The position numbers and the translations under genes were made by a program. From the IMG/VR virus record IMGVR_UViG_3300011339_000645, positions 1 through 53,865 of that record: 53,865 bases of DNA, one strand, 5' to 3'. This stretch comes from a virus (Duplodnaviria > Caudoviricetes). Position 1 is the stretch's first letter; each line of letters opens with the position of its first letter. The notes below the pieces were generated by a model that was not told the origin of the DNA, did no database searches, and saw nothing but the letters and a program-made list of their open reading frames with translations. Positions 262 to 53,514 of the stretch are shown piece by piece.

Positions 262-3200
262 TCTCAGATGAAGCGATACGACCTACTAAAGACAATGCTC
301 TGCGCCCCGGCCCGTTCTCTTCTAGGATTGAATTGTATCTAGCAGGATCACCAAAGTATCCTAGTCTCTTATCTAGGAATGCAGAGCTACCGGGGAATTC
401 ACGAAGAAGATTTGTCACATATACATCACCTTCCAGCTTCTCATCAGTCAGCATCTTTTGCATATCACGCATGACGCCGGGAACTGCGAGACGGGAAATG
501 ATGTTAGTTGCGATGTTTTTACCAGCCGCTGGGATGTCTTGAGCTTCCTTAAGTTCGATCAGATCAGCAACACCAGTCAAGAATGATTGGTCTAGTGCAG
601 CTACAAATCCAATAGCAAACGGAGCGACAGCTACAGTTATAGCCGCCTCGACTGCATCAATAGGACTCTTATCTTTCTTCTTCTCAAACCTATCGTAGAA
701 CTCTGCAAGCATCGATCCAGTAGCGAGAGGAATAACTAGAGGAGTATAGAGGTAAGAGATATATTTATCTCCAACGCGGATTGAGTAAGGAACTCCACCA
801 TTCTCCTTCCAGATTTTATTCTGCTCTGGGTCTGCTGGGCCAGTTGCGTAGAACTGGACAGGAGGACGCTCTTTCTGATCCTCATCATCACCGCCAGTAA
901 GCGCGGCAATGATTACAGGAACTGCCATGCCTGCGAATCCAATAGCTGACTTGATAGCAATATCAGCAGCCTTCTCTTCACGGCCCATGATAAATGGACT
1001 TTTGAGAGCGGATGGTTTCAATTCAATCTTTCCTCTAAGTAGAGGAGAAAGTTTCACATTCGCCGCAAGACGAGCAATACCTACAGTCGGAAGGTAGTTA
1101 AGATTTTCGTTCAATACATTCGCAACAACATTGGAGAATGGAATGAACAACTGAGTAATCGGGCTGACTTGCAATAGCTTGTTAGCTAAGGATGCAATCG
1201 ATCCAACCACACCTACTGGAGTCTGTGCATAAATAGTTTCCAAGGCATCTTGCTCTGCCTTCAATCGATTATCTTCATCCAGTCTCTGTTGTGAATATAT
1301 TTCATTAGCGCGGATGATGATCTCACGATTCTTCTCTTTGCCTTTGCTCTTGGAACTAGCGAGTTCTCTGATCGCTTGCTCCTTGGCTTGGTTGTATTGA
1401 TCCTGTTGGAAGGGAGCCGCACCAAAGGATGCTGCCCTTACTTCGTATGCGACTTCCCGCATGAATGAATCCGTAGCCCTCATCGTCCTCATCAATCCCC
1501 TTGGACTGATCGTAGCGAGTGTAGCGTTTAACCATTCCGGAAAAGACTCAATCTTCCCATCACCAAAAGTAATAATATTGTAAACCCACTTCGGAGTATT
1601 ATTTGGATTAGCACCCTCAATAAGATTCGTTTTTGGATACTTCATCATCTTCTCATCTTGGATGCCTGATGGATTCAGACCTGTCTGCATTGTGTATGCA
1701 AACGCATTCCTAGATGGGGCTTCTTTTCTGATAGTAGCATTGTAAAGCGCACGAAGCATTGGCCCAGTCGATTTACCTTTGGTATAGACAGACCAGACTG
1801 CCATGTTTCCAAGCAAGTTGAATGTGCTTCCAAGGAAGTTAACAACTTGAGTTCCAGCTTGTGAAAGCAAAGCAAAATACCAGTAGCTAGAGAAGTAATC
1901 TCTGGCTGAGAAAACTTGGTTCTCCAACATGAACCTTCCAAGTTTTTGCTCTTCGATGGATCGAGTCACACCCTCTGGTAGTGCGGAAATCCTATCACCC
2001 CACTCACGCAGTTGCTGGGCGAGATTTGGATTCCATTCAAGGTATCCCTTACCAAAGTCATGGGTTTGGCGGAAGGCTTCGTAGACTCCGAACTCATCCA
2101 ACTGACCCATGTTTGCCATCTCAATCAATCTCTGGATGACTGTCCTCTGGTTAGCTTTCTTCTTGATTCCGTTGTTGGTTAGAGTTTCCTGCGCCCGATC
2201 AATTGCTCTCTGCAAGTTCTCACTCTTCTGAGCTTGGATAGCTTTCGCCATCTGCTCTTCGATATACTTAGAAAGTTCGTTTGATGTAGCGTCATCGAAT
2301 CCAAGTTCAGTAATGATCAGTTCGTTGAGCTTATCAAGGAATGCGCGTTGATCGGTAGCGGCCAGCTTGGTCAGACCCTTGAGAGTCTTTGCCAACTGGA
2401 ACCTCTCTTCAGCAGTAGCAACTTTCTTCATTGCTTCCTTCTCGATCTTTCCGCCGATGATCCTGCCAGTCTCTTTGCTGATCTCAAACCCAAGGCTTTT
2501 CTTCACCCGCTTGGCAGTCTCTTCATCCAAGTAGTTCTGGGCATCCTCAATGAACTTATTGATCTGCTCGTCAGTAGCTCCGATGTTGGAGAGTTCCGCC
2601 TTGATGTGTGCCTTCACGGCAGACTGGGCGGCATAGCGATTCTCTCCAATGTAGGAGATCAGATCATTAAACTTGTAATCTAGGAAGTCAGCAGAGTCTT
2701 TGATCGCTTGGTTCCGCATGGCTTCACTCCATTGCCTGTCTTCAAGCATGGAGAATAACTCTTTGTATTTATCTTGGAAATCAGCGTTATCTTGATACAG
2801 GCTACCGATCTTGGTCTTTAGCTCTGCAATGAATTGCTTGTAGGCTTTATCGTTACCGATAACTGACTTCACTTGGGCCAAGTATTTTCCTTCACGCTTC
2901 TTGGCTTCTTTAACTTTAGGCTCTCCTTCTTTGGCGGCGACCTCTTTAGCGGTCTGTTTGGCTACTGCGCCGAAGGCTTGGTAGATGTATTTGTAAACAT
3001 TGTCAGGCGAGAAGTCTTTACGATCCGCGCCAATCGACATGATAGCCTTGGCAGTCTCATCCACCACCATGTTGGCATACTTGTCTCCCTTGGTATCAAA
3101 CATCGAGGCACAGAACTCCAAGACGATCTCCCTAGCCTTACGAGTCTTCTTCTTTGCTACGGCTTTTCTAATAGCATTGACTGCCGCTTGCGGGTTCTTC

Positions 3201-6200
3201 TCTGCCTTTGTCTTGAGTTGAGAGATTCGAGACAGGACTTCTTTTAATGTGAATACATTGTCTACTGCCTTCCTTCTATCTCCACGGACTGCTTCAGCAA
3301 GCTGAGTAAAATCACCACGGATGATCGTATAGAGATCAGCAAGACCATCGATGATCTTAGATTTGTATGCGGCTACAGCAGTTCCTGCACTACCAATGTT
3401 CCTAACTTGCTTCGCGGCATTAAGCGTTCTCGCACTAGCCTGCTGTTGATCAACGATCAGTTTTGCAAGATTAGATTCCAGATCAAGAGACTTGAGTGCA
3501 ATCGCTTCACGATCTTTAATCGCGGCTTTCGACTCCATGATCTCTTCTCTGTAGGCTGGTATCAATCGATACAGGATAGGAGTGATCGCATTCCTCTCTG
3601 ATTCAGTAAGACCATAGCGATCCGCTTGGTTAGCAACATCGCTTACCACACTAAAGAAGTCGGCATCTGGATTCTTTGTGAAGAGTTTATTGAGAGCCTT
3701 AGTAGCCTCTTCGTAGGTATTGCTGGTGTAAAGATTCGCGGCCCGTGAGTATGGGCTAACCAATGAAGAAGGATAGGTCTTACCTTTCTGCGTAGTCCTA
3801 GAGACATACTCCTTGCCTGCTCTACTACGCTTTGGCTGGAGTGTAGCGATCATGTCGTTTAACTCCTCAAGCATATCGTTGGTTATCCTTCTCTGCTCAG
3901 ATACTACTTTAGGCGTTACGCCTGCACGGGCTACAATTCCAGATTCCCTCGGCCCTCTTTTCAGTCTAGGCTCACCTACAGTAAAGAACTTGAGCTTCTT
4001 CGCTCTGCTCTTCTGAGAAAGATTCTGATACTCAGGTGTGTTTCTAACAAGCTGGGCCGCTTCCGCTGGTGAGTTGGCTTCGACTACGATCTGCCTTTCC
4101 CTTTTATTTTCTCCATTCCTATCGAAGACTTCGATGTCTTGGACATATGGAGCAGCCTTGGCTACAATCTCACCTTCCGCTGGTGCGGTTGCTTCTGCTG
4201 GCGCAGCTTCCTCGGTTGGAGTTATCGTTAACGATACTTCACCTTTAGGCTGGGCAGCAGAGTAATCCTTAAACTCGTAGTTAGCTTCTCCCTTTACAAT
4301 ACCATACTCATCGAGGATAGCATTTATGGAATCCTCCATGCGTTTGACTTCGCGGGTTGAGGTTCCTTTACCAAGGTAACGGGCGAGTGAGTTGCGGACA
4401 AACTTGAGTGCATTGAGGATCGAGTTCTTGAGTGATGCAATAGCCCCCTTGTCAGCGTCAGAGAAGGCTTCGCGTTCTGCCGTCCTGATTGCATTCAAGT
4501 CTTCAGTAATCTGGCCCGTGCGAACTCGCTGGATGACCATTCGCATGAACTCCATCGAGAATCCAACATCATCCAATGTTCCCATCTCTGGGCCAAGGTA
4601 GGCTTCAGAAACACCCGGCACAGCGTTAGGATTCGTCCTCTTTACCTCTTGGGCAATCTGACCGATTCGGCTAACGATGTATTGTTGCTCGGTCTGCTTT
4701 GGCTTTTTAAGAGCAGCGAATTCATCCTGCAATGCCTGATACATGGAGAGGTGAATCATCTCCTCTTCAAGTTTCTTGTCGGCAGCGCGGGACTCTTGGT
4801 CTAGTGCGGCATCTTTGCTCGCTGCCCGTTGTTCTCCCTTGATCGTAGTAGCGGTCAGTTGGTTGACATCTGGAAGGACAAGATACTTCTTACCATTAAA
4901 GAATGCTGCTCGGTAGGTTCCCGAATCAGCGGCGACTTGCTTTCCACCAGTCAGCTTTCCGTAATCTTCAGAGGAAATAACTTCAGCGTTGATACCAGCG
5001 AGGAAGCCAGCGTTCCTAGCGATGTTTGTGCGGATGGCATTCTTGAGCTTCTGCGCTCGTTTGCCTGCGACTCGGATACCCTTGATAGCTTTATCAGCAG
5101 CCTTAACGAATGCCTGCAATACTGGGCGGTCTGGGTAGAATGTTCCAAATGGAGTTCTCCGACCAGATGGAGGAAGTCCCATCTCCCTAGTAGGAGTAGT
5201 AGCTTGAGGATCGACGCCTTGCTCGATAGCTGTCATCTCAGCTAGCTTATTCTGCTCCGCGAAGATAGCTTTGTTTACCCTGTCCTGCCCAGCGGTATCG
5301 TTCTCATCCAAGGCATCGAACTCTTTATTGAGTTCCTCAATTCGGGTATTGATTTGCTCTTTAGTTTCTGGCGCGGCCTCAGTAGGAGCGGCTTCTTTTG
5401 CAGGAGCGGCAGAGAGTTTAGCGAACTGCCCTTCCAATTGCGCGAGGTTGTCCTTCTTGGCCTTCAATGCCATGTCAGCCTGCTGACGCTCTGGTGTGCC
5501 AGTCTCAAACGCCTGTAGGCCCATCTCGTCATTATCGATCTCCTCTTTAAGGTTATCGATCTCCGTGGACTTCTCCATCATCTGAGCGGCTAATGCAGAC
5601 TCTGGATCAGGAGCCAGTTCCTGCACGGCCTTATCTGCCTCGGAGTCGATGTCATCCAATTCAGCACCAAGATTGTCACCTTGCTTCTGTTTCTGGTTAG
5701 TCTTCTTAACTCCAAGCATCTGGGTAAAGATAGATGCCATGACACCAGCAGCCCCGCCTACACCACCAGCGTAGACTGTTCCTTCAAAGATGTCTTGGTT
5801 AGGCTCGTAGACATACTTCTTAACGAGGTTGCCTGCGATCTGCTGTGGCATCTCATTGAACAATGCTTCTTCGGTTCCTTCAATGATTGCCGTAGCGGCC
5901 TTGTTCAGACCTTTGTAAATTTTATCCTGCTGGGCTTTATCGAATCTACTTACCCACTTCTGAAGTGGAGATACCAATTCCAGCGGAGCTTGAGTCAAAG
6001 CAGAGAACAATGCCGCCTGCTTGGCTTGCTGGTCAGTAGCTCCGTTGGCCCTAGCTTCACTATATCCACCCCATGCAGAGTTCAGTCCACCGAATCCTAG
6101 TGTAGTTCCTTTTTGGAAAAGATTGATTGCCCTAGCAGAGTTCAAGCCAAGCGATGCTCTAGCTGTATTACCAAGCACACCAGCAACAATAGCTGCTCCA

Positions 6201-7378
6201 GTAAATCCAAGTCCGCTGGATACATCTCTACCAAATTGGGCAAGTTCACTAACCTTGCGTGGGTCTTGACCTCTCTGCCTCATTTGGTCAGCAAAGTCAG
6301 CAGCCTCTACCAAGGATTGTCCTGCATTCTCAAGGCCGATTCCTTGTAACGCTAAACCAATTGGCCCTACAGTTCCCGAACCAACCGCACCAGCGAAGCC
6401 GTCCCATGCTCGGCCAAAAAGTTCACCAGCATTTTCAGCAAAGCTAGGAGTAGTCATTGCCCACTCTTCAGCGAGCCTCCTGACATCTTGGTTCTGCTTT
6501 AGCTTATCTAGCTCTTGATTGTATGCTTCAGACCCGATCCCGATACGGCCAAGTTTAGCCTGCAAGAAACTCGGTGTAGTAATTCCTTTTGTAGAGGCAT
6601 ACTCAAGGAAGTTATCGTTAACGATAATGTCATCGATCTGCTGGCGGAAATCACCTACCGCTTTAATTGCGGCTCCTGTTCTCTTTTGGGTCGGAATCTT
6701 TTCACCAGACGGAGTGACGCCCTCTCCTCCACCAATCATTTGAGATAGCCAGTTTTTGTATCTGCCATCATGCTCAAGTTGAGTGCGGCGAAGATTATTG
6801 ATTTCCTTAATCAATGGAGTTTCGCCAGCAGCAGTTTCCATTGCGAAACCAGAAACTTGAGTCCTATTAGATTCGTCCTGCTTTTGCTTTATGAGTTCAG
6901 CCCTCTGCTCGTAACTCATACCATCTGGGCTGATAGGTTCTGGAATAACTTTGCCAGTAAGGCTAATAGCCTCTGCCCTTCTAACCTCGACTGGCTGACC
7001 TTCTACAAAAGAAGTTATTTTGCCTCGTCCTCTTTGGCTTTCTATCTTTACAGGCTCACCTTCCATGAAGGTCTTTGTTTGCCCCGGCTCCAATGCCAGA
7101 ATATCTGGGCCACCTACCATAGGCTCTCCACCTACAGGAAGACCTTCTCCTCGATTGATAGCTTGTGGGACTTCTTTTAGTTTAGAGATTGTTTCCTGCT
7201 CTGCTGCGGACTGCGCTCTTGGCGATGTCGTATAGAAATCAGCGATCTCATCTATCGAGTATCCAGATTTAATTGCGTTGCCAATTTTAGGATATTTCTG
7301 GGAAGCTGTTGATATAATCTCATCATCAGAATACCCAGCCTCCCGTGCCTTCTTGAGTTTTTCGAGCGTCAGGGACAT
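1..7378 (-). CDS. Giant internal virion / DNA-ejection protein (~2,468 aa, continues across the join to the stop at 53576)
   Basis: ATG at 7378 (MSLTLEKLKKAREAGYSDDEII...). The ORF track lists no stop-terminated ORF in this frame. The frame matches ORF 53576-53842 through the overlap. It is the last gene of the virion operon, after two smaller ejection-type proteins, and has LEEEMIH near 4750-4770. Confidence 0.85.
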   Translation of the reverse strand, partial: MSLTLEKLKKAREAGYSDDEIISTASQKYPKIGNAIKSGYSIDEIADFYTTSPRAQSAAEQETISKLKEVPQAINRGEGLPVGGEPMVGGPDILALEPGQTKTFMEGEPVKIESQRGRGKITSFVEGQPVEVRRAEAISLTGKVIPEPISPDGMSYEQRAELIKQKQDESNRTQVSGFAMETAAGETPLIKEINNLRRTQLEHDGRYKNWLSQMIGGGEGVTPSGEKIPTQKRTGAAIKAVGDFRQQIDDIIVNDNFLEYASTKGITTPSFLQAKLGRIGIGSEAYNQELDKLKQNQDVRRLAEEWAMTTPSFAENAGELFGRAWDGFAGAVGSGTVGPIGLALQGIGLENAGQSLVEAADFADQMRQRGQDPRKVSELAQFGRDVSSGLGFTGAAIVAGVLGNTARASLGLNSARAINLFQKGTTLGFGGLNSAWGGYSEARANGATDQQAKQAALFSALTQAPLELVSPLQKWVSRFDKAQQDKIYKGLNKAATAIIEGTEEALFNEMPQQIAGNLVKKYVYEPNQDIFEGTVYAGGVGGAAGVMASIFTQMLGVKKTNQKQKQGDNLGAELDDIDSEADKAVQELAPDPESALAAQMMEKSTEIDNLKEEIDNDEMGLQAFETGTPERQQADMALKAKKDNLAQLEGQFAKLSAAPAKEAAPTEAAPETKEQINTRIEELNKEFDALDENDTAGQDRVNKAIFAEQNKLAEMTAIEQGVDPQATTPTREMGLPPSGRRTPFGTFYPDRPVLQAFVKAADKAIKGIRVAGKRAQKLKNAIRTNIARNAGFLAGINAEVISSEDYGKLTGGKQVAADSGTYRAAFFNGKKYLVLPDVNQLTATTIKGEQRAASKDAALDQESRAADKKLEEEMIHLSMYQALQDEFAALKKPKQTEQQYIVSRIGQIAQEVKRTNPNAVPGVSEAYLGPEMGTLDDVGFSMEFMRMVIQRVRTGQITEDLNAIRTAEREAFSDADKGAIASLKNSILNALKFVRNSLARYLGKGTSTREVKRMEDSINAILDEYGIVKGEANYEFKDYSAAQPKGEVSLTITPTEEAAPAEATAPAEGEIVAKAAPYVQDIEVFDRNGENKRERQIVVEANSPAEAAQLVRNTPEYQNLSQKSRAKKLKFFTVGEPRLKRGPRESGIVARAGVTPKVVSEQRRITNDMLEELNDMIATLQPKRSRAGKEYVSRTTQKGKTYPSSLVSPYSRAANLYTSNTYEEATKALNKLFTKNPDADFFSVVSDVANQADRYGLTESERNAITPILYRLIPAYREEIMESKAAIKDREAIALKSLDLESNLAKLIVDQQQASARTLNAAKQVRNIGSAGTAVAAYKSKIIDGLADLYTIIRGDFTQLAEAVRGDRRKAVDNVFTLKEVLSRISQLKTKAEKNPQAAVNAIRKAVAKKKTRKAREIVLEFCASMFDTKGDKYANMVVDETAKAIMSIGADRKDFSPDNVYKYIYQAFGAVAKQTAKEVAAKEGEPKVKEAKKREGKYLAQVKSVIGNDKAYKQFIAELKTKIGSLYQDNADFQDKYKELFSMLEDRQWSEAMRNQAIKDSADFLDYKFNDLISYIGENRYAAQSAVKAHIKAELSNIGATDEQINKFIEDAQNYLDEETAKRVKKSLGFEISKETGRIIGGKIEKEAMKKVATAEERFQLAKTLKGLTKLAATDQRAFLDKLNELIITELGFDDATSNELSKYIEEQMAKAIQAQKSENLQRAIDRAQETLTNNGIKKKANQRTVIQRLIEMANMGQLDEFGVYEAFRQTHDFGKGYLEWNPNLAQQLREWGDRISALPEGVTRSIEEQKLGRFMLENQVFSARDYFSSYWYFALLSQAGTQVVNFLGSTFNLLGNMAVWSVYTKGKSTGPMLRALYNATIRKEAPSRNAFAYTMQTGLNPSGIQDEKMMKYPKTNLIEGANPNNTPKWVYNIITFGDGKIESFPEWLNATLATISPRGLMRTMRATDSFMREVAYEVRAASFGAAPFQQDQYNQAKEQAIRELASSKSKGKEKNREIIIRANEIYSQQRLDEDNRLKAEQDALETIYAQTPVGVVGSIASLANKLLQVSPITQLFIPFSNVVANVLNENLNYLPTVGIARLAANVKLSPLLRGKIELKPSALKSPFIMGREEKAADIAIKSAIGFAGMAVPVIIAALTGGDDEDQKERPPVQFYATGPADPEQNKIWKENGGVPYSIRVGDKYISYLYTPLVIPLATGSMLAEFYDRFEKKKDKSPIDAVEAAITVAVAPFAIGFVAALDQSFLTGVADLIELKEAQDIPAAGKNIATNIISRLAVPGVMRDMQKMLTDEKLEGDVYVTNLLREFPGSSAFLDKRLGYFGDPARYNSILEENGPGRRALSLVGRIASSETPDPAFQIMYRNALTPPKWQGSLKWSNDIKMNKAEQREFVGIAGPLMKEWIIDNEEALDDLTTEEAQEFLSNNIGQIRRSVKADLEF

Positions 7379-11156: not shown

Positions 11157-11177
11157 AGGGTTTATCGTTAACGATAA

Positions 11178-41625: not shown

Positions 41626-41656
41626 AAGGAAGATGTATTATCGTTAACGATAACCA

Positions 41657-43543: not shown

Positions 43544-44143
43544 TTAGATTTCGACTAGCTCATCCTCATCCTGCTCTTCTTCGTTCTCGTTAACGATAGA
43601 ATTTACGGGCGCGATTTCCCCTTCAAAGATTTGAATGTTATGTTTCTCTGTAACATTTCCCATCTCATCCCTCATCGGCGGCGTCACATGAAGGGAGATC
43701 ATCGCATTCACGCTCATTGCCCGTTGGTTCTGAACCTCTTGCTGATCCAGTCCAAGCGTCCTCCTCGCAGTCTTGTCCAGCTCCGTGAGTAGTTCCAAGC
43801 GTTCCTTTTGTTCTTTTGTGCCTTTCAGCTTCTTCCTCTCATCAATCACTTTCCTCTCTTCTTCTAGCTGCTTCAGCATAAACCACAGATGCTGTTCGCT
43901 TTCCTCTCCCATCTTGTGGATGAGCTTTTTTTCTATTTTCGCTGATGCCTGCGTTCTGATCAGGTCGCGCTGCTTTGCCCATTTCTCTCTAACCATCACA
44001 TTCCTAAAGTAAAACGGGGACAGCCCTTTGTATTGTGGGAGTTTTGTTATGTCTGCAACATCAAGCCCGGCCATGTAGTGGGATTTGATTTCTTCCCAAT
44101 TCCACTTCTTTGGGCGTCCAATGTTTTCTGGGTTTCTATCCAT
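43544..44143 (-). CDS. Probable terminase small subunit
   Basis: GRPKKWNWEEIKSHYMAG...REKW HTH-type N-terminus, central helices ending RRTLGLD, acidic tail. Confidence 0.6.
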   Translation of the reverse strand: MDRNPENIGRPKKWNWEEIKSHYMAGLDVADITKLPQYKGLSPFYFRNVMVREKWAKQRDLIRTQASAKIEKKLIHKMGEESEQHLWFMLKQLEEERKVIDERKKLKGTKEQKERLELLTELDKTARRTLGLDQQEVQNQRAMSVNAMISLHVTPPMRDEMGNVTEKHNIQIFEGEIAPVNSIVNENEEEQDEDELVEI

Positions 44144-44150
44144 ATCGTTG

Positions 44151-44179
44151 ACGATAATCTGTCCACATTTTCATGTCAA
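44151..44179 (-). promoter_or_regulatory. Promoter whose -10 box is half of a palindrome copy
   Basis: TTGACA-17 bp-TATCGT, then 7 nt to the ATG at 44143. Confidence 0.55.
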
Positions 44180-44235: not shown

Positions 44236-44438
44236 ATATATAGTCGATGGAGTAGTTCCATCTGACCATTGTTCCTTTAACATTTTAAATGTTTTCAGTT
44301 TCGGTTTTTCGTGGCCCCTGCCGCCTTTCTCTTTTGGCGGTGGGGGTAATGCGGCGCAAGTTCTCGTTAACGATAACTTGATGCGGTGACAAGCCCGTAA
44401 AGCATAACGCAAACGCAGAGTCACAACCACGAAACAAA

Positions 44439-44574: not shown

Positions 44575-44802
44575 ATGAACACAATCGAAGAAAGCGGAAC
44601 AATCACAATTAACTCGCCTGTTCATGGCGCGAAGTTTGTGTTTGCCAATCCAACCCAACAGCTTGTTTACAAGCGTCTCGTTGAACGATACAGCATCGAA
44701 CCTCGCAATATCTACAAAGGATTCTGCGGAGACAATGTTGTTATCTGCGAGTGGGATCACATCACAATCGGCATCGAGGAGGATGGATATGCACACTCGT
44801 GA
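44575..44802 (+). CDS. Small early protein
   Basis: Start MNTIEES; ends IGIEEDGYAHS. Confidence 0.7.
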   Translation: MNTIEESGTITINSPVHGAKFVFANPTQQLVYKRLVERYSIEPRNIYKGFCGDNVVICEWDHITIGIEEDGYAHS

Positions 44803-45028: not shown

Positions 45029-45104
45029 TTAGCCACTCTGCTCTGTTATCGTTTAACGATAGCAGGGCAGCAGGCTGACTACAACCAGTCAGTAAAACAC
45101 GAAA
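45029..45104 (+). repeat. Early intergenic structured element, copy A
   Basis: TTAGCC-ACT-[CTGCTCTGTTATCGT-TTA-ACGATAGCAGGGCAG]-CA-GGCTGACT-ACAACC-AGTCAG-TAAAACACGAAA-ATG. Confidence 0.75.
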
Positions 45105-45782
45105 ATGATAATACATGAAACGCAAGACATCGTAGCAATTGCTACTCGCAATTCGACCAATCGCAAGACTGGTAAATCTGTCCAGATATGGATTCTTGAT
45201 GCAACCATGCATCCTGTAGAGTCCAGACGCTCTGGGCATGACGCAGACAACCAATGCAATGGATGCCCGTTCGCCTCCAATAATGGATGCTATGTGAACG
45301 CTAATCCTCTTGGTGCAATCTGGCGAGCCTATCAGCGGGGTTCATATGAATACCTTCAGATGGGAACTCGCGAGTGGCATGATTTCTTCTCTGTCCCATT
45401 TGTCCGCTTCGGCGCATACGGCAATCCATCCCATCTCCCAGTCGAGATGATCGATAGCATCGCCCGACTCTCCAAGCGTATCACAGGTTATTTCCATGAT
45501 TGGCATGAAATGCCAGTGCCACTTGCCAAAGCATATGGCCGCTACTTCATGGCTTCCTGTGAGCCTACCAATGTAGAGTATGCAAAGAACCTCGGACTCC
45601 GCACATTCACTATCAGCGAGACTCCTCTCGTTAACGATATTGAATGCCTCGCAGATTCCAAGGGGCTTTCCTGCTCACAATGTGGTTTGTGTGACGGCAA
45701 CAATCGTCGCTCATCCCTTCCATCCGTGTGGATCAATCCTCACGGCTATCAACTCAAGAAAGCTGTAGAAGTAGTCAAATGA
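45105..45782 (+). CDS. Cys-rich putative Fe-S/Zn protein (Gp88-like)
   Basis: NRKTG, CNGCPF...CYV, VRFGAYGNP, TGYFHDW and C...CSQCGLC motifs; family name is tentative. Confidence 0.6.
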   Translation: MIIHETQDIVAIATRNSTNRKTGKSVQIWILDATMHPVESRRSGHDADNQCNGCPFASNNGCYVNANPLGAIWRAYQRGSYEYLQMGTREWHDFFSVPFVRFGAYGNPSHLPVEMIDSIARLSKRITGYFHDWHEMPVPLAKAYGRYFMASCEPTNVEYAKNLGLRTFTISETPLVNDIECLADSKGLSCSQCGLCDGNNRRSSLPSVWINPHGYQLKKAVEVVK

Positions 45783-45955: not shown

Positions 45956-46032
45956 CAGACACTCTGGTTATCGTCAACGATAGCCAGCAGTCTGCTTGCA
46001 TGGTGCAAGTGGAAAACCAAACACGAAACAAA
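45954..46032 (+). repeat. Early intergenic structured element, copy B
   Basis: AGCAGAC-ACT-[CTGGTTATCGT-CA-ACGATAGCCAG]-CA-GTCTGCTTGCA-TGG-TGCAAGTGGA...ACACGAAACAAA-ATG. Confidence 0.8.
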
Positions 46033-46320: not shown

Positions 46321-46401
46321 TCAGACACACCGCTCATTATCGTTTAACGATAGTGGGCGGTAGTCTGATAGCATGGTGCTATTAGTAAACACGAAACACA
46401 T
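46320..46401 (+). repeat. Early intergenic structured element, copy C
   Basis: TCAGAC-ACA-[CCGCTCATTATCGT-TTA-ACGATAGTGGGCGG]-TA-GTCTGATAGCA-TGG-TGCTATTAG-TAAACACGAAACACAT-ATG. Confidence 0.8.
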
Positions 46402-47018: not shown

Positions 47019-47111
47019 TCAGACACTCCGCTCATCCGAAAGGGTGGGCGGCAGTCTGGTTATCGTTGACGATAATCGGAAACCAAACGAAACAACAAAC
47101 GAAACAAACAC
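47017..47111 (+). repeat. Early intergenic structured element, copy D
   Basis: GATCAGAC-ACT-[CCGCTCATCC-GAAA-GGGTGGGCGG]-CA-GTCTGGTTATCGT-TG-ACGATAATCGGA...AACGAAACAAACAC-ATG. Confidence 0.8.
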
Positions 47112-47711: not shown

Positions 47712-49318
47712 CTCTTTCTAGTCTTATTGATTGCGTTGACTTTAGTCAGCCAATGCGACTCCAGACCAAGCGTGGGTTGCGCCTTCTTCGGAAGGCGTCT
47801 CCCACCAAGGAGTTCTGGGATATCTACAGGTCAGACAAGGAAGTGTTCTCATCCGAGCTTCGGAAGCTAGGGATTCAAGTATCAGAATTCCGTGGCAATT
47901 GGGAACTATCATGGTGGTCGAAGGATGATCTTTCCTTCCCGGCTATCCATGACTTCGCTGTCTCAGAGCAGAAGGATGAGCCTATCGTTTACGATATGCC
48001 TTCCCTCATGCATCCAGAGAACTTGTTTGAGTATCAACTCACATCAGTTCAGCTAGGATTGCGCTCGATGATGAAGTATAACCGCGCTCTTCTCGGTCAT
48101 GGCACAGGCATGGGCAAGACGGCAATCGCCCTTGCTATCGCCCGTGAGCGTGGCCGTAAGGTCGCAGTCATCTGTCCCAAGCCAATCGTCACAGACTGGC
48201 ATAGGATGGCAAAATACCTCGGCGTAGAAACGCATGAAGTATGTGGATGGGAATGGGTCAAGACTGGTAAGTCTAACATTGGTCGCTGGACAGATGATAA
48301 GAAGAAGGAATTCAAGTATCATCTGCCTCCAGATGTTGATCTCATCTTCGACGAGGTTCATCGCGGCAAAGGAATGGGAACACAGAACGCATACCTAGTT
48401 AGGGATGCAGTTGTTCAGAATGTCCCTGCCCTAGCATTATCGGCAACGATAGCAGATGACCCTACCAAGATGTGGGCAATCGGCCAGTTCCTTGGCTTGC
48501 ACAGAGGTAGTGACTACTATCCCTTTCTTCATAGGAATGGGTGCGTAAAGACCCAATGGGGTATGCAGTTCCGTGGTGGAATGAAAGTCCTTCGTTCTAT
48601 TCACAAAAGCATATTCCCAGATCGCGGCAATCGCCTCAAACCATCCGATGTCGGTGATGCGTTTCCAGAGACTCTCATCCATGCCAGAGCATTCGACATG
48701 GATAGTGCCAAGGAAATCGCTACCGAATACGACAAGCTACTGACTCGCATCGAGGAACTGCGTATGCAGGAAAACTTCGCGGCCAATGTCCTAGCAGAAC
48801 AAACCAGAGCAAGACAAGCTATCGAGCTTCTTAAGGCTCCAGCCGTTTGTTCTCTGGTCAAGGACTTGACCGAAGAAGGCAACTCAGTCTTCATCGCAGT
48901 CAACTATGTAGAGACACTCAAGTTCATGGAGGAGGAAATCAAGACCAAATGCACGATCCAAGGTGGTCAGAATGACCTCACCCGCCGGGGAAATATCGAT
49001 TCATTCCAGAACGATAAATCCAGAGTAATCATAGGAATCATCCAAGCCTGCCGTGAAGGTCTTAACCTCCATGACTTGAATGGTGATCATCCTCGCGTTG
49101 CTCTCATCATGCCTACCTACTCAGTCTTCGATCTCAAGCAAGTCTTGGGTCGAGTTCACCGAGCAGGCGGCAAATCAAAATCAATCCAATACCTAGTCTA
49201 CGCCGCTGGCGTTGCTTTGGAAGAGGATATCTGTAATTCACTAGACAAGAAACTGAAACAAATGGATCAACTGATGGATGGAGAAGTAGATGCTTCCATC
49301 TCTCTAGTTGCCAAGTAA
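47708..49318 (+). CDS. Superfamily-2 (SNF2/DEXH-like) helicase
   Basis: GTGMGKT, DEVH, SAT, EGLNL and QVLGRVHR motifs; probable start MTLSSL. Confidence 0.9.
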   Translation: MTLSSLIDCVDFSQPMRLQTKRGLRLLRKASPTKEFWDIYRSDKEVFSSELRKLGIQVSEFRGNWELSWWSKDDLSFPAIHDFAVSEQKDEPIVYDMPSLMHPENLFEYQLTSVQLGLRSMMKYNRALLGHGTGMGKTAIALAIARERGRKVAVICPKPIVTDWHRMAKYLGVETHEVCGWEWVKTGKSNIGRWTDDKKKEFKYHLPPDVDLIFDEVHRGKGMGTQNAYLVRDAVVQNVPALALSATIADDPTKMWAIGQFLGLHRGSDYYPFLHRNGCVKTQWGMQFRGGMKVLRSIHKSIFPDRGNRLKPSDVGDAFPETLIHARAFDMDSAKEIATEYDKLLTRIEELRMQENFAANVLAEQTRARQAIELLKAPAVCSLVKDLTEEGNSVFIAVNYVETLKFMEEEIKTKCTIQGGQNDLTRRGNIDSFQNDKSRVIIGIIQACREGLNLHDLNGDHPRVALIMPTYSVFDLKQVLGRVHRAGGKSKSIQYLVYAAGVALEEDICNSLDKKLKQMDQLMDGEVDASISLVAK

Positions 49319-49324
49319 AGAAAT

Positions 49325-49370
49325 GGGGCAGATTCACAGGTTAATTCCTGCGGTCTGCCCCTTTTTGTTT
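49325..49370 (+). terminator. Intrinsic terminator
   Basis: GGGGCAGA...TCTGCCCC-TTTTTGTTT, directly followed by a palindrome variant. Confidence 0.75.
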
Positions 49371-49473
49371 ATCGTTAACGAGAATTTTTCCCGCTGTCAC
49401 ATGGTAACCCTTAAACTTGCGACCATGTAACACTCCGCTTTTGCGGGGAGGTATTAGCTCACGGGAAAAGTTG

Positions 49474-49730: not shown

Positions 49731-50141
49731 TTAGTCTTTAGGTATGTATTTTTGGCTTGCGTATTTATTGAATGCTTTTTTGAGTCTTACTGCTTGATTG
49801 TAGAATGAGTCCACAATTTCTTTTGTGCATTCTGGAAAGTCATCATCCCAAGGAGAACCGCTCAGTTCGTCTTTTATGAATTGATCTACAATCTTTTTTA
49901 CAGTAATTTCAATGGGCGGATATTCGTAACCATTTGGATGTTTAACCTCAATGCTTGCTATACTACCATCAGTTGTGAGGCGAACAGTCATGTCATCCAT
50001 CATTTTGTCGATGGCTAATGCTATGTCTAAAGAAGCGAGTTCTTTGTCTCCCTGCAATAATTTAAGAATCGCATCTTGAACGCAAGAGGATAGTGCCTCC
50101 TTAACAAATGGATTCATTAGGGCTTTTGTTGTTCTTTTCAT
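49731..50141 (-). CDS. Hypothetical protein
   Basis: Probable start MKRTTK by TAATG overlap; AT-rich. Confidence 0.6.
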   Translation of the reverse strand: MKRTTKALMNPFVKEALSSCVQDAILKLLQGDKELASLDIALAIDKMMDDMTVRLTTDGSIASIEVKHPNGYEYPPIEITVKKIVDQFIKDELSGSPWDDDFPECTKEIVDSFYNQAVRLKKAFNKYASQKYIPKD

Positions 50142-51094
50142 TATTCTCCTCTCAAAAACTGCATCCATTCATTCTCCGCTGCATCGAACCAGCTTTTCCC
50201 TTGCAGGTCGATGATTAATTGGTGAGCCTCTACTTCATCGGGAACTTGGGATACAACTTCAGAGTTAGACCAGTTCTCCACATTCAGAACAAGGTAGCGG
50301 TGAGGCAGGGGTTTCATCTTGTCATCCCTGCCTTGGGCTTCACGGACTTTGCCGCGAACCTCTTGGCTCGATAGCTTCTCTACCTTGGCGCATTCAAGCA
50401 GCTTCTGCATCTTGTCCTTGGACAGGTCTGCTGTAGCCACTTCAAGGTGGACTGTGAATGGGAGCATAGGGTCACGGGATTCATGGCCCAAGACTCGGCA
50501 GGTGCGAGCGTAGTTGCTGACTGTGCTGTAGCTCTTCTTGAACTGGGCGCACAATTGATTGACTACATTCTCATGTCCCGCATCCTCAAGTGCGACTACC
50601 GCATCCCCGATGATCCATTGGCTTCCGCTTTCCAAAGTAAGGCCGAAAGCAAAAGCTTTGACCCAGTCTTTAGCTTCTACCTGACCTTTAGGAACGCAGC
50701 GTGTCATACCTCCAAGGTCGAACTTCTGTGTGAAGGATGAGAAATCAAGACCCTCAGTCACAGAGTTGACAAGCTCAAGGCTTTCATTCTCTGGCTCGAC
50801 TACCTCAACATTATCGTTAACGATAGTTTCGGTGTTCTTGGATTCAATAAGATCAACGGCAGTCTCGTAGTCGAATGCCATCTTCTCATACATCTCTGCG
50901 ACCTCGTCGGCCACATTGTCTTCCAAGTATTGGTTCTTTTTTACCTTATCCCATACCTTCTTTACCAAGGCATCTGTCATGTTGATTCCCTTCCACTCCT
51001 GTTGAGCAAAGGTTAACATCTGCTTGAGATAGGTTGCTTCGTTGACGAGTTGTCCCTCGTTGAGAGGGCTGAATAGTTCTAGTTTAGTTTTCAT
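50141..51094 (-). CDS. DNA-binding protein with LmbU-like domain
   Basis: SQWIIGD...SYSTVSNYARTC...R...LPFTVHLEVA...LLECAKVEKLSSQEVR resembles, from memory, the LmbU-family pattern WWxGD...YQTLRNYAWVA...LSFxHHAEVA. Confidence 0.6.
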   Translation of the reverse strand: MKTKLELFSPLNEGQLVNEATYLKQMLTFAQQEWKGINMTDALVKKVWDKVKKNQYLEDNVADEVAEMYEKMAFDYETAVDLIESKNTETIVNDNVEVVEPENESLELVNSVTEGLDFSSFTQKFDLGGMTRCVPKGQVEAKDWVKAFAFGLTLESGSQWIIGDAVVALEDAGHENVVNQLCAQFKKSYSTVSNYARTCRVLGHESRDPMLPFTVHLEVATADLSKDKMQKLLECAKVEKLSSQEVRGKVREAQGRDDKMKPLPHRYLVLNVENWSNSEVVSQVPDEVEAHQLIIDLQGKSWFDAAENEWMQFLRGE

Positions 51095-52128: not shown

Positions 52129-52365
52129 TTACCAGTTTTCCTCGTTTATTGTTAATGATTTCTTTTCCTTCGTTGACCTGTCGTAGATGTAATAGAAGTC
52201 AAATACTCCGCTAAGAGAGATGTGAACTTCCCATCGGCTTGTTGGATCAACAGTTTCGTCTATGTCTGCTGGAGGCTGGATTGCCATCCAATCTAATGCT
52301 TCTTGTCTATTCTCTTCTGGCAGCATTGCCAGTCTTTCAATAGATGGCAATAGTCTTTTACTCAT
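52129..52365 (-). CDS. Hypothetical protein
   Basis: Probable start MSKRLLP at 52365. Confidence 0.6.
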   Translation of the reverse strand: MSKRLLPSIERLAMLPEENRQEALDWMAIQPPADIDETVDPTSRWEVHISLSGVFDFYYIYDRSTKEKKSLTINEENW

Positions 52366-53227
52366 GTGTTTGGTATTTGGTTTTGTAGTAGTGGCAGAAT
52401 GGTGCGACAGAGCAGAACCGCTCGCATCGTATGTCACCACCCGCACGGGTTTCTATGCTATGCTTTGCTCCGTAGGATGGAAGAAGATTCTGTGCTTCCT
52501 CCATCGTGGAACAAACTTTTACTGCCCTCTTGCCACCCTCTTTCTTGATGGCAAAGGTATCTGCTTTAGCCCACCGCTCTTCGGGCGAGCATTCTGGGAT
52601 GTCATCGTCGAGCTTCTTGGCTGCGGCTTGATGCAAGGCGACTCGCTCCGTAGCGTAAGCGATGCACTCTGCTTCACTCCACAATGGAATGTCAACGATG
52701 TGGACTGCACACTTAGGGTAGTCATTCTCATACTCAGCCTTGCTCGACTGCCAGTCCCGAAGGATGGCGACGATCTGACCTTTCTTGACTTCATACCCAT
52801 AGCTCCTCCAGAGCATGGCATTCAAGTTGATCTGCGCTTCCCACTCACTCTTGGTTCCAAGCATGAATGAGAAGACCGATGTTACCTTGAAGTCGGAGAT
52901 GGTTTTGCTCTCCGTCTCGTAGAGATCAGTCTGACCAGACAATGTCCAACCATTGATGTCCATGTAGAGTCGGCGTTCTGTCTGCTCTGTCTCGCCGCCT
53001 GCTAGTTCAAGGACTTTGTGGACTGACTGACCTAACAGAGTCCAGACCCTGTCGGATGCGTCCTCTGTGATCTCTTCCCCATGCCGCTTGCGAAGCTGGA
53101 AGATTTTCGGTGGGCCTATCAAGCTAGTCACCGAGATGTCGAATGGCTTCGCACCCGGTGTGTATCCATCATGGCTCAACGCACGAAACATTGGGGCTGG
53201 TAGCCCGTGATTGTTTGTGATCTTCAT
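52358..53227 (-). CDS. PD-(D/E)XK exonuclease (Cas4/RecB-like)
   Basis: LGQSVH, GQTDLY, ISDFKVT and QINLN motifs with C-terminal RCERFCSVAPFC. Confidence 0.85.
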   Translation of the reverse strand: MKITNNHGLPAPMFRALSHDGYTPGAKPFDISVTSLIGPPKIFQLRKRHGEEITEDASDRVWTLLGQSVHKVLELAGGETEQTERRLYMDINGWTLSGQTDLYETESKTISDFKVTSVFSFMLGTKSEWEAQINLNAMLWRSYGYEVKKGQIVAILRDWQSSKAEYENDYPKCAVHIVDIPLWSEAECIAYATERVALHQAAAKKLDDDIPECSPEERWAKADTFAIKKEGGKRAVKVCSTMEEAQNLLPSYGAKHSIETRAGGDIRCERFCSVAPFCHYYKTKYQTHE

Positions 53228-53452: not shown

Positions 53453-53476
53453 TAGTTTTATTTCTATCGTTAACGA

Positions 53477-53514
53477 TAAAAGAAAAAGAGGGGCCGATTA
53501 CTCAGCCCCCCTCT
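53477..53514 (-). terminator. Intrinsic terminator ending the virion operon
   Basis: GC-rich GAGGGGG...CCCCCTC hairpin followed by TTTTTCTTTT on the minus strand. Confidence 0.75.

Follow-up and report, generated by a model that had tools for sequence, protein, structure and literature searches.

Known dispersed-operator systems include KorB with its OB sites, Noc with its NBS sites, and the stoperators, and the palindromes described here appear, by analogy, to be a new variant of them. The phage sites can be likened to each of the three, also for an added genome-wide organizing role. The central domain of the candidate binding protein resembles the fold of Noc and the DNA-binding domain of ParB/Spo0J, although a ParB N-terminal domain and a ParA partner were not found by Pfam among the proteins scanned here. 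The candidate also shows weak sequence similarity to the palindrome-binding regulators of the LmbU family; LmbU itself is a helix-turn-helix (HTH) homodimer that binds a palindrome (PMC6510168).

The 14-mer TATCGTTAACGATA was present in 16 exact copies in the window (the whole stretch of 53,865 nt that was analyzed), at every coordinate given by an earlier, sequence-only reading, compared to a mean of 0.00 in 100 dinucleotide-preserving shuffles. Ten copies with one mismatch and two with two mismatches brought the number with no more than two mismatches to 28 (0.13 expected), and five variants with a 5-nt center or an indel (42517, 42730, 44676, 45047, and 46338) brought it to 33. The same reading's ten one-mismatch copies and several indel variants were reproduced in this count, and a further site at 23889, with both arms perfect, makes 34. 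Matches to TATCG-N2-8-CGATA numbered 26 versus 0.18 expected. The sites were as follows:

2848..2861, site TATCGTTACCGATA, in giant gene; kept in 14/14 distinct homologous segments (46-94% protein identity)
4223..4236, exact, in giant gene, S-L-T-I frame; kept in 1/9 homologous segments
6613..6626, exact, in giant gene; kept in 9/9 homologous segments (39-74% identity)
11163..11176, exact, intergenic, 6 nt upstream of ATG of gene 10191-11156(-)
13677..13690, exact, in gene 11875-13881(-); kept in 27/28 segments, biased upward since many loci were fetched through the 16-mer
16963..16976, exact, 5 nt upstream of ATG of AT-rich tailspike gene 15200-16957(-); homology breakpoint at 16955
17954..17967, exact, first codons of gene 17747-17974(-)
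20477..20490, exact, abutting stop codon of gene 20491-21102(-)
23889..23902, arm-perfect TATCGCTTCCGATA, in gene 23188-24480(-)
24264..24277, exact, in gene 23188-24480(-); kept in 9/22 segments
27810..27823, exact, abutting ATG of gene 27222-27809(-); breakpoints at 27794 and 27809
30730..30743, exact, 6 nt upstream of leftward-firing TTGACT -35-like hexamer
32825..32838, exact, 6 nt upstream of a leftward TTGACA directed into AT-rich tailspike gene 30828-32780(-)
34923..34936, degenerate TATCGGTAACAATA, 11 nt upstream of rightward promoter-like TTGACC...TAGGGT
36410..36423, site TATCGGTAACGATA, in DnaB-like helicase gene; kept in 18/21 segments (44-95% identity)
38503..38516, exact, near 3' end of gene 38018-38563(+), 55 nt upstream of promoter-like 38571; kept in 6/28 segments
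41133..41146, exact, 6 nt upstream of ATG 41153; left edge of 505-nt segment absent from other-run contig
41639..41652, exact, 4 nt upstream of dCMP deaminase ATG (41657-42049); right edge of the 505-nt absent segment
42517..42531, 5-nt-center variant, 32 nt upstream of promoter-like 42563
42730..42744, 5-nt-center variant, 11 nt upstream of gene 42755-43471
43585..43598, one-mismatch TCTCGTTAACGATA, in gene 43544-44143(-)
44143..44156, one-mismatch; arm TATCGT is the -10 of leftward promoter-like TTGACA-17-TATCGT, abutting ATG of gene 43544-44143(-)
44362..44375, one-mismatch, dyad lengthened by palindromic flanks; dG -14.3 kcal/mol, z -2.1
44676..44690, 5-nt-center variant
45047..45061, 5-nt center, tip of long hairpin; dG -29.5 kcal/mol, z -6.9
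45626..45639, one-mismatch, in gene 45105-45782
45969..45982, one-mismatch, tip of long hairpin; dG -26.1 kcal/mol, z -5.3
46338..46352, 5-nt center, tip of long hairpin; dG -32.6 kcal/mol, z -9.2
47061..47074, one-mismatch, directly after long hairpin of the same family, itself without the motif
47983..47996, one-mismatch, in helicase gene 47630-49318; kept in 1/48 segments, with a site about 30 nt away in many relatives
48438..48451, site TATCGGCAACGATA, in helicase gene 47630-49318; kept in 17/49 segments
49370..49383, one-mismatch, between convergent ends 49318(+)/49474(-), just after hairpin and T-run
50812..50825, exact, inside the candidate binder's own gene; kept in 4/50 segments
53465..53478, exact, between giant-gene terminator (53515-53484) and promoter-like TTGACA-16-TATCTT (53452-53425) of the candidate binder's operon

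The ORF list placed 15 of the 33 sites in coding sequences, 1 across a gene edge, and 17 between genes; at least one of the coding calls, the site at 45969, probably lies between genes, the start of its ORF having been set too far upstream. About half of the sites fall in the 8% of the window that is noncoding (coding share, 92%), many of them closely upstream of promoters or start codons. Coding copies used two frames only, giving I-V-N-D and S-L-T-I type peptides, and the third frame, read off the sequence, would bring TAA in frame. These figures agree with the earlier description of roughly half the copies as intragenic in two frames. The described absence of copies from the AT-rich tailspike bodies (13691-16962 and 30744-32824) and the HNH gene (33290-33895) was likewise borne out, as was a spacing of 1 to 4.5 kb in the late region that tightens in 41-49 kb. 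Spacing was more even than random in G000 (P = 0.0008), G001 (P = 0.0036), and G002 (P = 0.0002), marginally so in G004 (P = 0.038), and not significantly so in G003 and G005. The distance from site to -35 ranged from 6 to 31 nt, which does not fit the fixed geometry of an activator or a repressor.

The sites are under selection as DNA. When coding sequences were shuffled among synonymous codons (n = 300), TATCG-N4-CGATA occurred on average 0.41 times (maximum, 3) compared to 12 observed, and the exact 14-mer 0.07 times compared to 7. Orthologous intragenic sites persisted down to 39 to 56% protein identity (9/9, 14/14, 18/21, and an upward-biased 27/28) while their flanks diverged, but other intragenic sites were poorly conserved (1/9, 4/50, and 6/28). 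The sequence-only proposal that selection acts on the DNA and not on the peptide is upheld by both comparisons, with conservation at orthologous positions holding for part of the sites. Its perfect 14- to 16-mer is true of this genome, whereas the element of the lineage as a whole is TATCG-N4-CGATA with a variable center. In its general form, T-TATCG-N4-CGATA-A, the arms are one fixed sequence across hundreds of sites and changes cluster in the four central bases. Half-sites outside full sites were not enriched (TTATCG, 20, versus 42 for the reversed word), and thus the full dyad is needed. Together with the synonymous shuffles, the conservation at orthologous positions, and the sites conserved in terminator-promoter spacers, this makes them look like targets of a dimeric protein. 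The positions in the terminator-promoter spacer (53465) and between convergent gene ends (49370) argue for a role at the level of DNA rather than RNA.

The motif is lineage-wide. All 61 loci fetched by protein alone, not by the motif, carried sites (497 in 1,112,207 bp, versus 2 for the reversed control). Sites were also present in all six complete genomes of relatives, of which two are distant: G001 to G005 had 27, 17, 15, 17, and 9 sites, and G006, reached only via a distant homologue of the candidate binder, had 29, with a control of 0 in each case. About 160 related loci carry the motif, and the relatives are uncultured, with 10 to 30 copies each. Of 110 viral stretches fetched with the 16-mer, 98 belong to this phage lineage; the other 12, without a tblastn match to window proteins, were single-copy loci where compared. 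In a 0.8-Mb MAG, all 20 sites were on a single phage contig and none on the nonphage contigs, the MAG probably not being the host. Chance, an assembly or adapter artifact, and a repeated peptide are already refuted as its origin: shuffles give 0 expected sites, copies use two reading frames as well as noncoding DNA, and the motif recurs in the related loci and in independent assemblies, with the same stretch or close variants in contigs assembled from further runs on freshwater, river, and sediment samples. No point was found in favor of such an origin.

Three genes bear on the identity of the binder:

50141..51094, - strand, candidate site-binding protein of 317 aa; central domain with a ParB-like HTH fold, weak similarity to the LmbU family, homodimer predicted
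52358..53227, - strand, PD-(D/E)XK nuclease-like gene of the candidate's operon (feature score 0.99)
34121..34582, - strand, HTH_31 (Cro/CI-type) protein, rival candidate binder; present in G001-G004, not detected in G005 and G006

The 50141-51094 product is the best candidate binder. It matched NCBIfam LmbU_fam_TF with an E value of 1.1e-10, at 41.7 bits far under the NCBI cutoff of 125 bits. Residues of about 136 to 257 of its AF2 model (pLDDT 78.7) aligned to Spo0J-parS, Noc-NBS, and ParB structures, which made up 11 of the top 13 rows (rmsd 2.6-4.2 Å over 96-132 residues), with Z scores of 8.7 to 9.9, although in helical domains a Z below about 13 may stem from a widely shared arrangement; Foldseek E values against ParB/Noc were not significant (0.15 or worse). 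A symmetric homodimer was predicted with a score of 0.66 (best of three controls, 0.00), a mark reached by 20/30 proteins solved as one-chain pairs and 1/23 solved as single chains; runs agreed in at least 73% of contacts, with partner pLDDT of at least 72. Only 7 to 8 window proteins were detectable in the distant, motif-bearing G005, and the candidate was the only recognizable DNA-binding one. It was also present in G006 and is the only recognizable DNA-binding protein common to all motif-bearing genomes. Portal, terminase, an HNH-like protein, a tail protein, the 138-aa product of 27827-28243, and a 76-aa protein were equally co-conserved; as the genomes with the motif all come from a single broad lineage, any conserved gene is expected to co-occur with it. 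The putative recognition helix Y-x-T-V-S-x3-R was invariant among proteins 29 to 61% identical, whose genomes share the same arms. Upstream of the operon, a site followed by TTGAC was found in 57/62 related loci and the order terminator-site-TTGAC in 56/62 (46 distinct contexts); 34 of those 56 had an extra half-site within 17 nt after TTGAC. The operon's nuclease-like gene had no match in Pfam itself, and PF12705 was carried by 49 to 59% of members of its best clusters; the assignment as a PD-(D/E)XK nuclease is a lead only.

It is rather unlikely that the sites are operators of the HTH_31 protein, another small phage protein, or a host regulator, forming a stoperator-like or CIR-like repressor array. 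The HTH_31 gene adjoins divergent promoter-like sites (34499 and 34510), a degenerate site lies nearby, 11 nt upstream of rightward promoter-like 34948, and the free 4-nt center between conserved outer arms may resemble 434- or lambda-type operators. Cro/CI-type operators, more typically than parS or NBS, combine a variable center with conserved outer arms, which would favor the HTH_31 protein or an unrecognized binder. However, no HTH_31 homologue was found in the motif-bearing G005 and G006, even with profiles from at least 28 homologues, and the Sigma70_r4 ORF (42046-42276 region) is not conserved in relatives. Among the binders listed in the sequence-only reading, these two are weakened and 50141-51094 stands best. 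A host factor may be the binder, but the 98/110 share of this lineage does not suggest a host-wide motif common to unrelated phages, nor do the motif-free nonphage contigs of the MAG point to one, although the MAG is probably not the host.

A hairpin of RNA or extruded single-stranded DNA, whether a cruciform, a hairpin promoter, or a signal for processing, stabilization, or attenuation, that is recognized by a structure- and sequence-specific factor is distinctly improbable. Variation is concentrated in four "loop" bases and 5-nt centers are tolerated; several copies lie 0 to 6 nt upstream of start codons, and the phage codes for an uncharacterized 2,555-aa protein. In the early region the motif tips long, very stable hairpins (dG -26 to -33 kcal/mol, z -5.3 to -9.2); the arms that flank it vary in sequence yet remain complementary. 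A structure-only signal is excluded, however, because the arms never covary across hundreds of sites; the common arm variant TCTCG has no compensating change in the opposite arm. Sites standing alone form weak folds (dG about -5 to -11 kcal/mol, z -0.8 to -1.5), a perfect palindrome carries no strand direction, and little transcript is expected to cover the conserved sites that follow a terminator and precede a promoter or that separate convergent terminator-like hairpins. The long hairpins are an element of their own, because a sister hairpin at 47015-47060 shares their outer stem but lacks the motif. Extrudable cruciforms, raised earlier, are plausible for the few early-region copies that tip long hairpins but not elsewhere. 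Very unlikely, too, is a primary role as recombination linkers for cassette exchange or recombination-dependent replication, possibly as targets of neighboring nuclease or recombination genes such as the one sharing the candidate's operon. Comparison of the window with relatives gave 108 distinct homology breakpoints, 11 of them within 20 nt of a site (3.3% for random positions), an enrichment that is only about threefold and confounded by the intergenic position of sites; 9/33 sites were affected and 24/33 were not. Copies flank AT-rich tailspike genes, and an other-run contig joins 41150 to 41656, removing exactly the intercopy segment, but any dispersed repeat is expected to give recombination at shared 16-mers as a side effect, and the sites kept within the giant gene and DnaB, both essential, do not mark cassette borders.

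The preferred explanation, to which we give about an even chance, is that the palindromes are double-stranded DNA sites for a phage-encoded homodimeric HTH protein, most likely the 50141-51094 product, that would act as global regulator and genome organizer. Co-occurrence of this protein with the sites is observed; we infer that it binds them and to what effect. Two invariant TTATCG half-sites separated by four loosely constrained bases would be bound as double-stranded DNA, and the homodimer may occupy about 30 sites genome-wide. Many of these adjoin promoters, that of the binder's own operon among them, or gene starts or the borders of transcription units; there the dimer would act as a global regulator, probably repressing or insulating. 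Sites inside long genes would be kept to hold site-free stretches to about 4.5 kb at most, which suggests an added genome-wide organizing role. The earlier proposal of binding sites for a dimeric protein is supported as far as a dyad target of a dimer goes; the dimer could coat, protect, condense, silence, or pull in the genome. If the explanation is correct, a single phage DNA-binding protein would regulate or organize the whole 54-kb genome of this freshwater phage.

The palindrome TATCGTTAACGATA was found in 16 exact copies in the window, which is a complete virus record of 53,865 bp, compared to a mean of 0.00 copies in 100 dinucleotide-preserving shuffles. At up to two mismatches there were 28 sites (0.13 expected), and tolerating one extra central base brought the number to 33. 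A search for TATCG-N2-8-CGATA returned 26 matches versus 0.18 expected and added an arm-perfect site at 23889, for a total of 33 to 34. Most copies extend over the 16-mer T-TATCG-TTAA-CGATA-A. Seventeen of 33 sites are intergenic and one lies across a gene edge, an approximately six-fold enrichment in noncoding DNA (92% of the sequence is coding in our own ORF list). The 15 intragenic copies are confined to two reading frames, both of which lack an in-frame TAA, and none was found within the two AT-rich tailspike genes or the HNH gene. A sequence-only reading had listed the exact copies, had placed about half of all copies inside genes in two frames, and had seen none in the tailspike and HNH genes; its description, including all 16 coordinates, proved right on every point that could be checked. 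Copies are denser and mostly imperfect in the early region (42.5 to 49.4 kb). The spacing of sites was more even than random in G000 (P = 0.0008), a genome listed beside the complete relatives G001 to G005, and in the relatives G001 (P = 0.0036) and G002 (P = 0.0002); evenness was marginal in G004 (P = 0.038) and not significant in G003 or G005.

The sequence-only reading had also held that selection acts on the DNA and not on the peptide, and this was borne out. In synonymous-codon shuffles of all genes, which preserve every protein sequence and global codon usage, TATCG-N4-CGATA occurred 0.41 times on average (maximum, 3 in 300 shuffles) compared to 12 times in the actual sequence, and the exact 14-mer occurred 0.07 times compared to 7. 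Codon-level alignments with relatives revealed that several intragenic sites are fixed at orthologous positions while the adjoining codons change freely.

Retention of intragenic sites at orthologous positions in related phages
Site 2848, giant gene (the 2555-amino-acid protein gene at the window ends), kept in 14 of 14 segments, 46 to 94% protein identity
Site 6613, giant gene, kept in 9 of 9 segments, 39 to 74% protein identity
Site 36410, DnaB gene, kept in 18 of 21 segments, 44 to 95% protein identity
Site 13677, gene 11875-13881, kept in 27 of 28 segments, a biased count because many loci were fetched via the 16-mer
Site 48438, helicase gene, kept in 17 of 49 segments
Site 24264, gene 23188-24480, kept in 9 of 22 segments
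Site 38503, gene 38018-38563, kept in 6 of 28 segments
Site 50812, candidate binder gene (50141-51094, minus strand), kept in 4 of 50 segments
Site 4223, giant gene, kept in 1 of 9 segments
Site 47983, helicase gene, kept in 1 of 48 segments, many relatives having a site about 30 nt away

Conservation at orthologous positions, which had been put forward as a check on function, held for the sites at 2848, 6613, 36410, and 13677 but did not extend to those at 4223, 50812, and 47983. The pattern at 47983 looks like local turnover of a site and not like its loss. Across the lineage, this dyad-symmetric DNA site is subject to purifying selection strong enough to freeze synonymous codon positions while the proteins diverge to about 40% identity, and it provides a clean natural example of overlapping DNA-level and protein-level constraints.

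The 16-mer was present in more than 110 viral stretches, and 98 of the 110 that were fetched encode relatives of window proteins. The loci fetched via the 317-amino-acid product of 50141-51094, the candidate binder, were chosen by protein and not by motif and are hence more telling: all 61 carry sites, 497 in 1,112,207 bp or one per 2.2 kb, compared to 2 for the reversed control. In the five complete genomes reached through the 16-mer (G001 to G005), TATCG-N4-CGATA occurred 27, 17, 15, 17, and 9 times, respectively, and the reversed control 0 times. Another 29 sites were found in G006, a distant relative that was reached only via a distant homologue of the candidate binder. The arms TATCG and CGATA are invariant across the lineage, and the four central bases vary (GAAA, GTAA, GTTA, GAAC, TTAA, and others), mostly in the form K-W-W-M; the TTAA-centered perfect palindrome is the local form of the window's close relatives. 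Half-sites outside full sites were not enriched, which indicates that the dyad is the functional unit.

Runs of seven studies contained the window's phage; two of these may themselves have been the source of the window DNA. The runs were examined as contigs, and RNA-library contigs spanning parts of the region are no proof of transcription. The lineage is one of abundant, widespread, uncultured freshwater phages. A megablast search of the GenBank phage collection with 12 kb of the window gave no match, and most structural proteins, as well as the giant protein, received no name from PHROGs, Pfam, or NCBIfam. A frequency of about one TATCG-N4-CGATA per 2 kb provides a simple sequence marker for spotting this lineage in metagenomes.

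No integrase or ParA was found in scans of the window proteins, and neither Pfam searches of 30 window proteins nor a genome search revealed signs of lysogeny or plasmid life. The only genome match was a phage-sized contig of ∼52 kb binned in a 0.8-Mb archaeal MAG labeled Woesearchaeota. This contig is a complete-looking relative that carries all 20 sites of the MAG, the other contigs having none, and its presence there most likely reflects a binning error and is no evidence for a host. Shine-Dalgarno-like sequences were not seen at the starts inspected (e.g., 11156, 16957, 27809, 41153, 41657, and 44143), and a transcript from the promoter-like site at 44143 would be leaderless, its start coinciding with or adjoining the ATG. 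In combination with the LmbU-like candidate binder, these features hint at an actinobacterial host. The giant open reading frame (2-7378, minus strand) is cut by the start of the record and resumes in the same frame at 53576-53865 (minus strand); read circularly, it is one gene with its stop at 53576 and no Pfam match. This continuity indicates a circular or circularly permuted genome, although the record is classed as linear. The "direct terminal repeats" of 123 nt in G005 and 127 nt in G006 look like assembly overlaps that give no physical ends.

The sites are enriched at promoters, gene starts, and borders of transcription units, and others recur at intervals within long genes. Four (30730, 32825, 34923, and 53465) are 6 to 12 nt upstream of −35-like hexamers, and five (27810, 41133, 41639, 11163, and 16963) are 0 to 6 nt upstream of start codons. 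At 44143, the arm TATCGT doubles as the −10 element of a strong promoter-like site abutting the ATG of a leftward gene, and the site at 49370 lies between convergent gene ends. The site at 53465 is located between a terminator-like hairpin (53515-53484, the strongest of the region) and the promoter-like TTGACA-16-TATCTT. In 57 of 62 loci a site is found 1.5 to 3.6 kb upstream of the candidate binder homologue, and in every case TTGAC comes within 12 to 31 nt after the site. The site is preceded by a GC-rich inverted repeat in 56 of the 57 loci (46 distinct contexts), and in 34 of those 56 an extra half-site occurs at most 17 nt after TTGAC, inside the promoter core. That a site is retained in the spacer from a terminator to the next promoter speaks for a function at the level of DNA, not RNA. 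Across the full set of 797 distinct contexts, no fixed distance from site to TTGAC emerged. In the window, generic scans for promoters and terminators did not rise above shuffles, and the promoter and terminator evidence is limited to individual best-scoring sites. The orientation of asymmetric centers relative to transcription was also considered, in a test confounded by orthologous copies and coding constraints.

The site is probably bound by a dimeric, sequence-specific protein. Only 7 to 8 of 66 window proteins are detectable in the distant relative G005 (tail protein, portal, the 138-amino-acid product of 27827-28243, large terminase, an HNH-like protein, a 76-amino-acid protein, and the candidate binder), and the candidate binder is the only one of these with a recognizable DNA-binding domain. 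Its residues 140 to 273 match positions 11 to 142 of the 171 in the NCBI LmbU-family model NF038070 (E = 1.1e-10; 41.7 bits, below the cutoff of 125); Pfam (E ≤ 0.01, whole protein) assigned no family. LmbU is described as a palindrome-binding homodimer of the helix-turn-helix (HTH) type that also regulates its own gene (PMC6510168). In the AlphaFold model of the candidate binder (pLDDT, 78.7), a central helical domain (residues 136 to 257, approximately) aligns with the DNA-binding domains of Spo0J-parS, Noc-NBS, and several ParB structures, with Z scores of 8.7 to 9.9 over 96 to 132 residues (VIA-align), and ParB/Spo0J/Noc structures account for 11 of the top 13 rows. Foldseek E values for the same matches are not significant (0.15 or worse), and helical domains reach such Z scores without kinship; thus, the fold match is support, not proof. 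Residues 1 to 94 match only unrelated chains (Z of about 4 to 5), the G005 homologue lacks the N-terminal part altogether, and a motif like the GERRxRA of ParB was not seen in the alignment of the family.

The predicted homodimer of the candidate binder scored 0.66 (best of three controls, 0.00), a mark that was reached by 20 of 30 proteins solved as one-chain pairs and by 1 of 23 with single-chain structures. Contacts agree between runs to at least 73%, with a partner pLDDT of at least 72, and the symmetric predicted interface leaves the putative recognition helix free. This helix, Y-x-T-V-S-x3-R, is invariant in homologues 29 to 61% identical, the genomes of which have identical arms. The family comprises 233 clusters at 50% identity, and the helix varies among distant members; for eight distant homologues no locus was found among the viral or metagenome contigs searched. 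The G005 protein as a query matched only itself, and a five-sequence alignment added one genome, G006, with the same arms. Two genes upstream of the candidate binder, 52358-53227 and 51315-52121 (both minus strand), are conserved across the lineage. No family could be assigned to the latter, the position of which would fit a single-strand annealing protein; the former resembles PD-(D/E)XK (Cas4/RecB-type) nucleases by language-model features only and is only a lead.

It is unlikely that a different protein, either the HTH_31 (Cro/CI-type) product of 34121-34582 (minus strand) or a host factor, binds the sites. Pfam recognized two HTH proteins in the window, HTH_31 and a Sigma70_r4 ORF. HTH_31 is present in G001 to G004 but was undetected by profiles in G005 or G006, and on the basis of sequence comparison and structure prediction the 317-amino-acid product of 50141-51094 appears to be the stronger candidate. 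Next to the HTH_31 gene, at 34483-34527, two divergent promoter-like sites (10 of 12 positions each) have −35 hexamers that overlap in the palindrome TTGACAGGTCAA. The pair is followed by a rightward ORF of ∼130 amino acids (34527-34931), in a layout that resembles a cI/cro-type switch; no integrase was detected in the phage. Farther on, ∼145 nt of noncoding DNA (34980-35124) lie between the early promoter-like site at 34948 and a DnaD-like gene. This stretch contains two T-runs and several GC-rich hairpins and could represent a leader, the origin region, or a small RNA; Rfam gave no match.

A function as a hairpin, in RNA or extruded DNA, appears quite improbable. The variable center is loop-like, and three early-region sites form the tips of long hairpins (dG, −26 to −33 kcal/mol; z, −5.3 to −9.2). 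However, the arms are invariant, arm variants are uncompensated, isolated sites fold weakly (z, −0.8 to −1.5), and some sites are in nontranscribed spacers. A sister hairpin has the same outer stem without the motif, and we read the long hairpins as a separate early-region element that has incorporated the palindrome. Members of this hairpin family (45950-46000, 46318-46372, 47015-47060, and 45030-45078) have the outer stem CAGAC...GTCTG in common. Another small hairpin and the leader aaacacgaaacaaaATG come after each of them; T-runs are absent throughout, and one member has no palindrome at its tip. Lying between early genes, they could be elements for processing or stabilizing RNA. The stem of the motif is AT rich, with two G-C pairs per arm, in contrast to the GC-rich stem and T-run of an intrinsic terminator, and a terminator scan picked up only the copy at 17954. 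Rfam 15 gave 0 matches at the gathering score across the whole window, in which no tRNA was found either.

The possibility that the sites are recombination linkers is regarded as very improbable. Eleven of 108 homology breakpoints were within 20 nt of a site (3.3% expected), one contig from another run is missing precisely what lies between the copies at 41133 and 41639, and the operon of the candidate binder includes the nuclease-like gene. However, the breakpoint enrichment is modest and confounded, and exchange at the repeats is therefore regarded as a by-product. The contig just mentioned, from an RNA-library run of another study, joins 41150 to 41656, omitting exactly the two small genes between those motif copies; these genes have 0 and 2 homologues among related loci, and their absence is likely cassette gain or loss by recombination between repeats. 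Tailspike-like genes at 15200-16957 and 30828-32780 (both minus strand) are bordered by motif copies (16963 for the one, 30730 and 32825 for the other), have only their N-terminal parts in common with relatives, and have a G+C content in 2-kb windows of 0.36 and 0.32, compared to 0.45 overall. They look like swapped host-range cassettes. Because the repeats coincide with some mosaic junctions, they may shape the exchange of such cassettes among these phages.

Other readings were rejected. Palindromic restriction or modification targets are normally avoided rather than enriched; these sites are enriched, and no methyltransferase was seen. The HNH gene (33290-33895) occurs in only one related locus, which speaks against a homing-endonuclease target, and MITE or transposon ends do not fit copies in frame inside conserved genes. 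A sigma-factor promoter element was dismissed because the flanks have no conserved hexamers and the Sigma70_r4 ORF (41917-42276, plus strand) is not conserved in relatives, its sole similarity being the part that overlaps the deaminase gene. A Sigma-70 region 4 domain is clearly recognizable in this ORF (E = 1.4e-13), which follows the dCMP deaminase gene; in contigs from two other runs, ∼320 nt are missing here (joints 42045 to 42365 and 42045 to 42367). An artifact was also excluded.

Binding of a dimeric protein to dispersed dyads has precedents. In IncP-1 plasmids such as RK2, KorB, a ParB-fold HTH dimer, binds about a dozen copies of a short palindrome, OB, on a replicon of ∼60 kb, and these operators, at variable distances from promoters, provide global control of replicon genes. 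Here, too, one short palindrome is dispersed over the replicon at variable distances to promoters, and an HTH dimer with a possible ParB fold is predicted, but the site sequence is different, many sites are inside genes, and the replicon is a phage without sign of plasmid or prophage life. Pfam detected no ParB N-terminal CTP-binding domain, ParA/IncC, or KorA in 30 window proteins. For the candidate's central domain, the best-matching structures are the solved Noc-NBS and ParB/Spo0J-parS complexes 6y93, 7ol9, and 4umk (Z, 9.2 to 9.9). Noc and ParB dimers also have palindromic targets of 14 to 16 bp, and Noc sites are many, dispersed, and mark the whole chromosome; the 16-bp dyad, which the candidate would bind, occurs 33 to 34 times. 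In contrast to Noc and ParB, sequence similarity is below Pfam detection and the site center is variable, whereas parS and NBS are conserved throughout.

Stoperators are oriented relative to transcription. Those of the L5 gp71 type are similar in being roughly 20 to 30 copies in a phage genome of ∼50 kb, many of them at gene borders, for a single phage protein with control over the entire genome. In Cluster A mycobacteriophages they are described as asymmetric and bound by the monomeric immunity repressor of temperate phages (PMC9283540). In contrast, the sites in the window are perfect or near-perfect dyads without enrichment of half-sites alone, nearly half are intragenic, and the searches revealed neither an integrase nor a prophage copy. 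The central HTH domain of the candidate is weakly similar to the LmbU family of actinomycetes (E = 1.1e-10); the described site of LmbU itself, the 8-bp CGCCGGCG, occurs at a few promoters in a biosynthetic cluster (PMC6510168). Unlike LmbU, the array here is dispersed, the N- and C-terminal domains differ, and the score is far below the family cutoff. The inverted repeats of the Streptomyces phage phiC31, the C1 operators of P1, and the sopC centromeres of N15 are likewise dispersed sites for one regulator or partition protein. Those phages are temperate, however, their sites are far less numerous and have known roles in repression or partition, and the sequences are unrelated to the palindrome in the window. 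The system appears to work like KorB-OB, Noc-NBS, stoperators, or phiC31 repeats and to be a member of none of them. A literature search of main texts found no description of this palindrome/protein system and no phage LmbU protein; the motif core appeared only in primers and unrelated constructs.

In the proposed mechanism, a ParB-fold, LmbU-like homodimer would occupy the dyad. At the promoter of its own operon, the full upstream dyad and the half-site in the promoter core would allow autoregulation, and binding at other promoters and gene starts would result in genome-wide regulation that is probably repressive or insulating. The distance from site to −35 varies from 6 to 31 nt, which rules out a strict activator geometry and is reminiscent of KorB, whose action at OB tolerates variable distances. 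Promoter control alone does not explain intragenic, evenly spaced, deeply conserved sites, which suggests a roadblock or structural role; intragenic sites may serve as elongation roadblocks, as with stoperators, or in loading, bridging, or compaction of the phage chromosome. Judged from sequence and modeled structure, there is about an even chance that the candidate binder binds the sites with a regulatory or organizing role.

Dispersed arrays of sites through which one protein controls an entire replicon are known from a few models, such as RK2 KorB, Bacillus Noc, and mycobacteriophage stoperators, and the same logic appears here with a different protein architecture. The unstudied HTH family related to LmbU and ParB offers a testable protein and site pair. 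It is conceivable, if rather doubtful, that this apparently lytic freshwater lineage marks its own chromosome with evenly spaced docking sites bound by a ParB-fold protein without a CTPase domain, and that the array compacts, compartmentalizes, or shields the replicating genome as a phage-built nucleoid or "self" label in addition to tuning promoters. If true, such a system would represent a new mode of DNA organization for a small phage.
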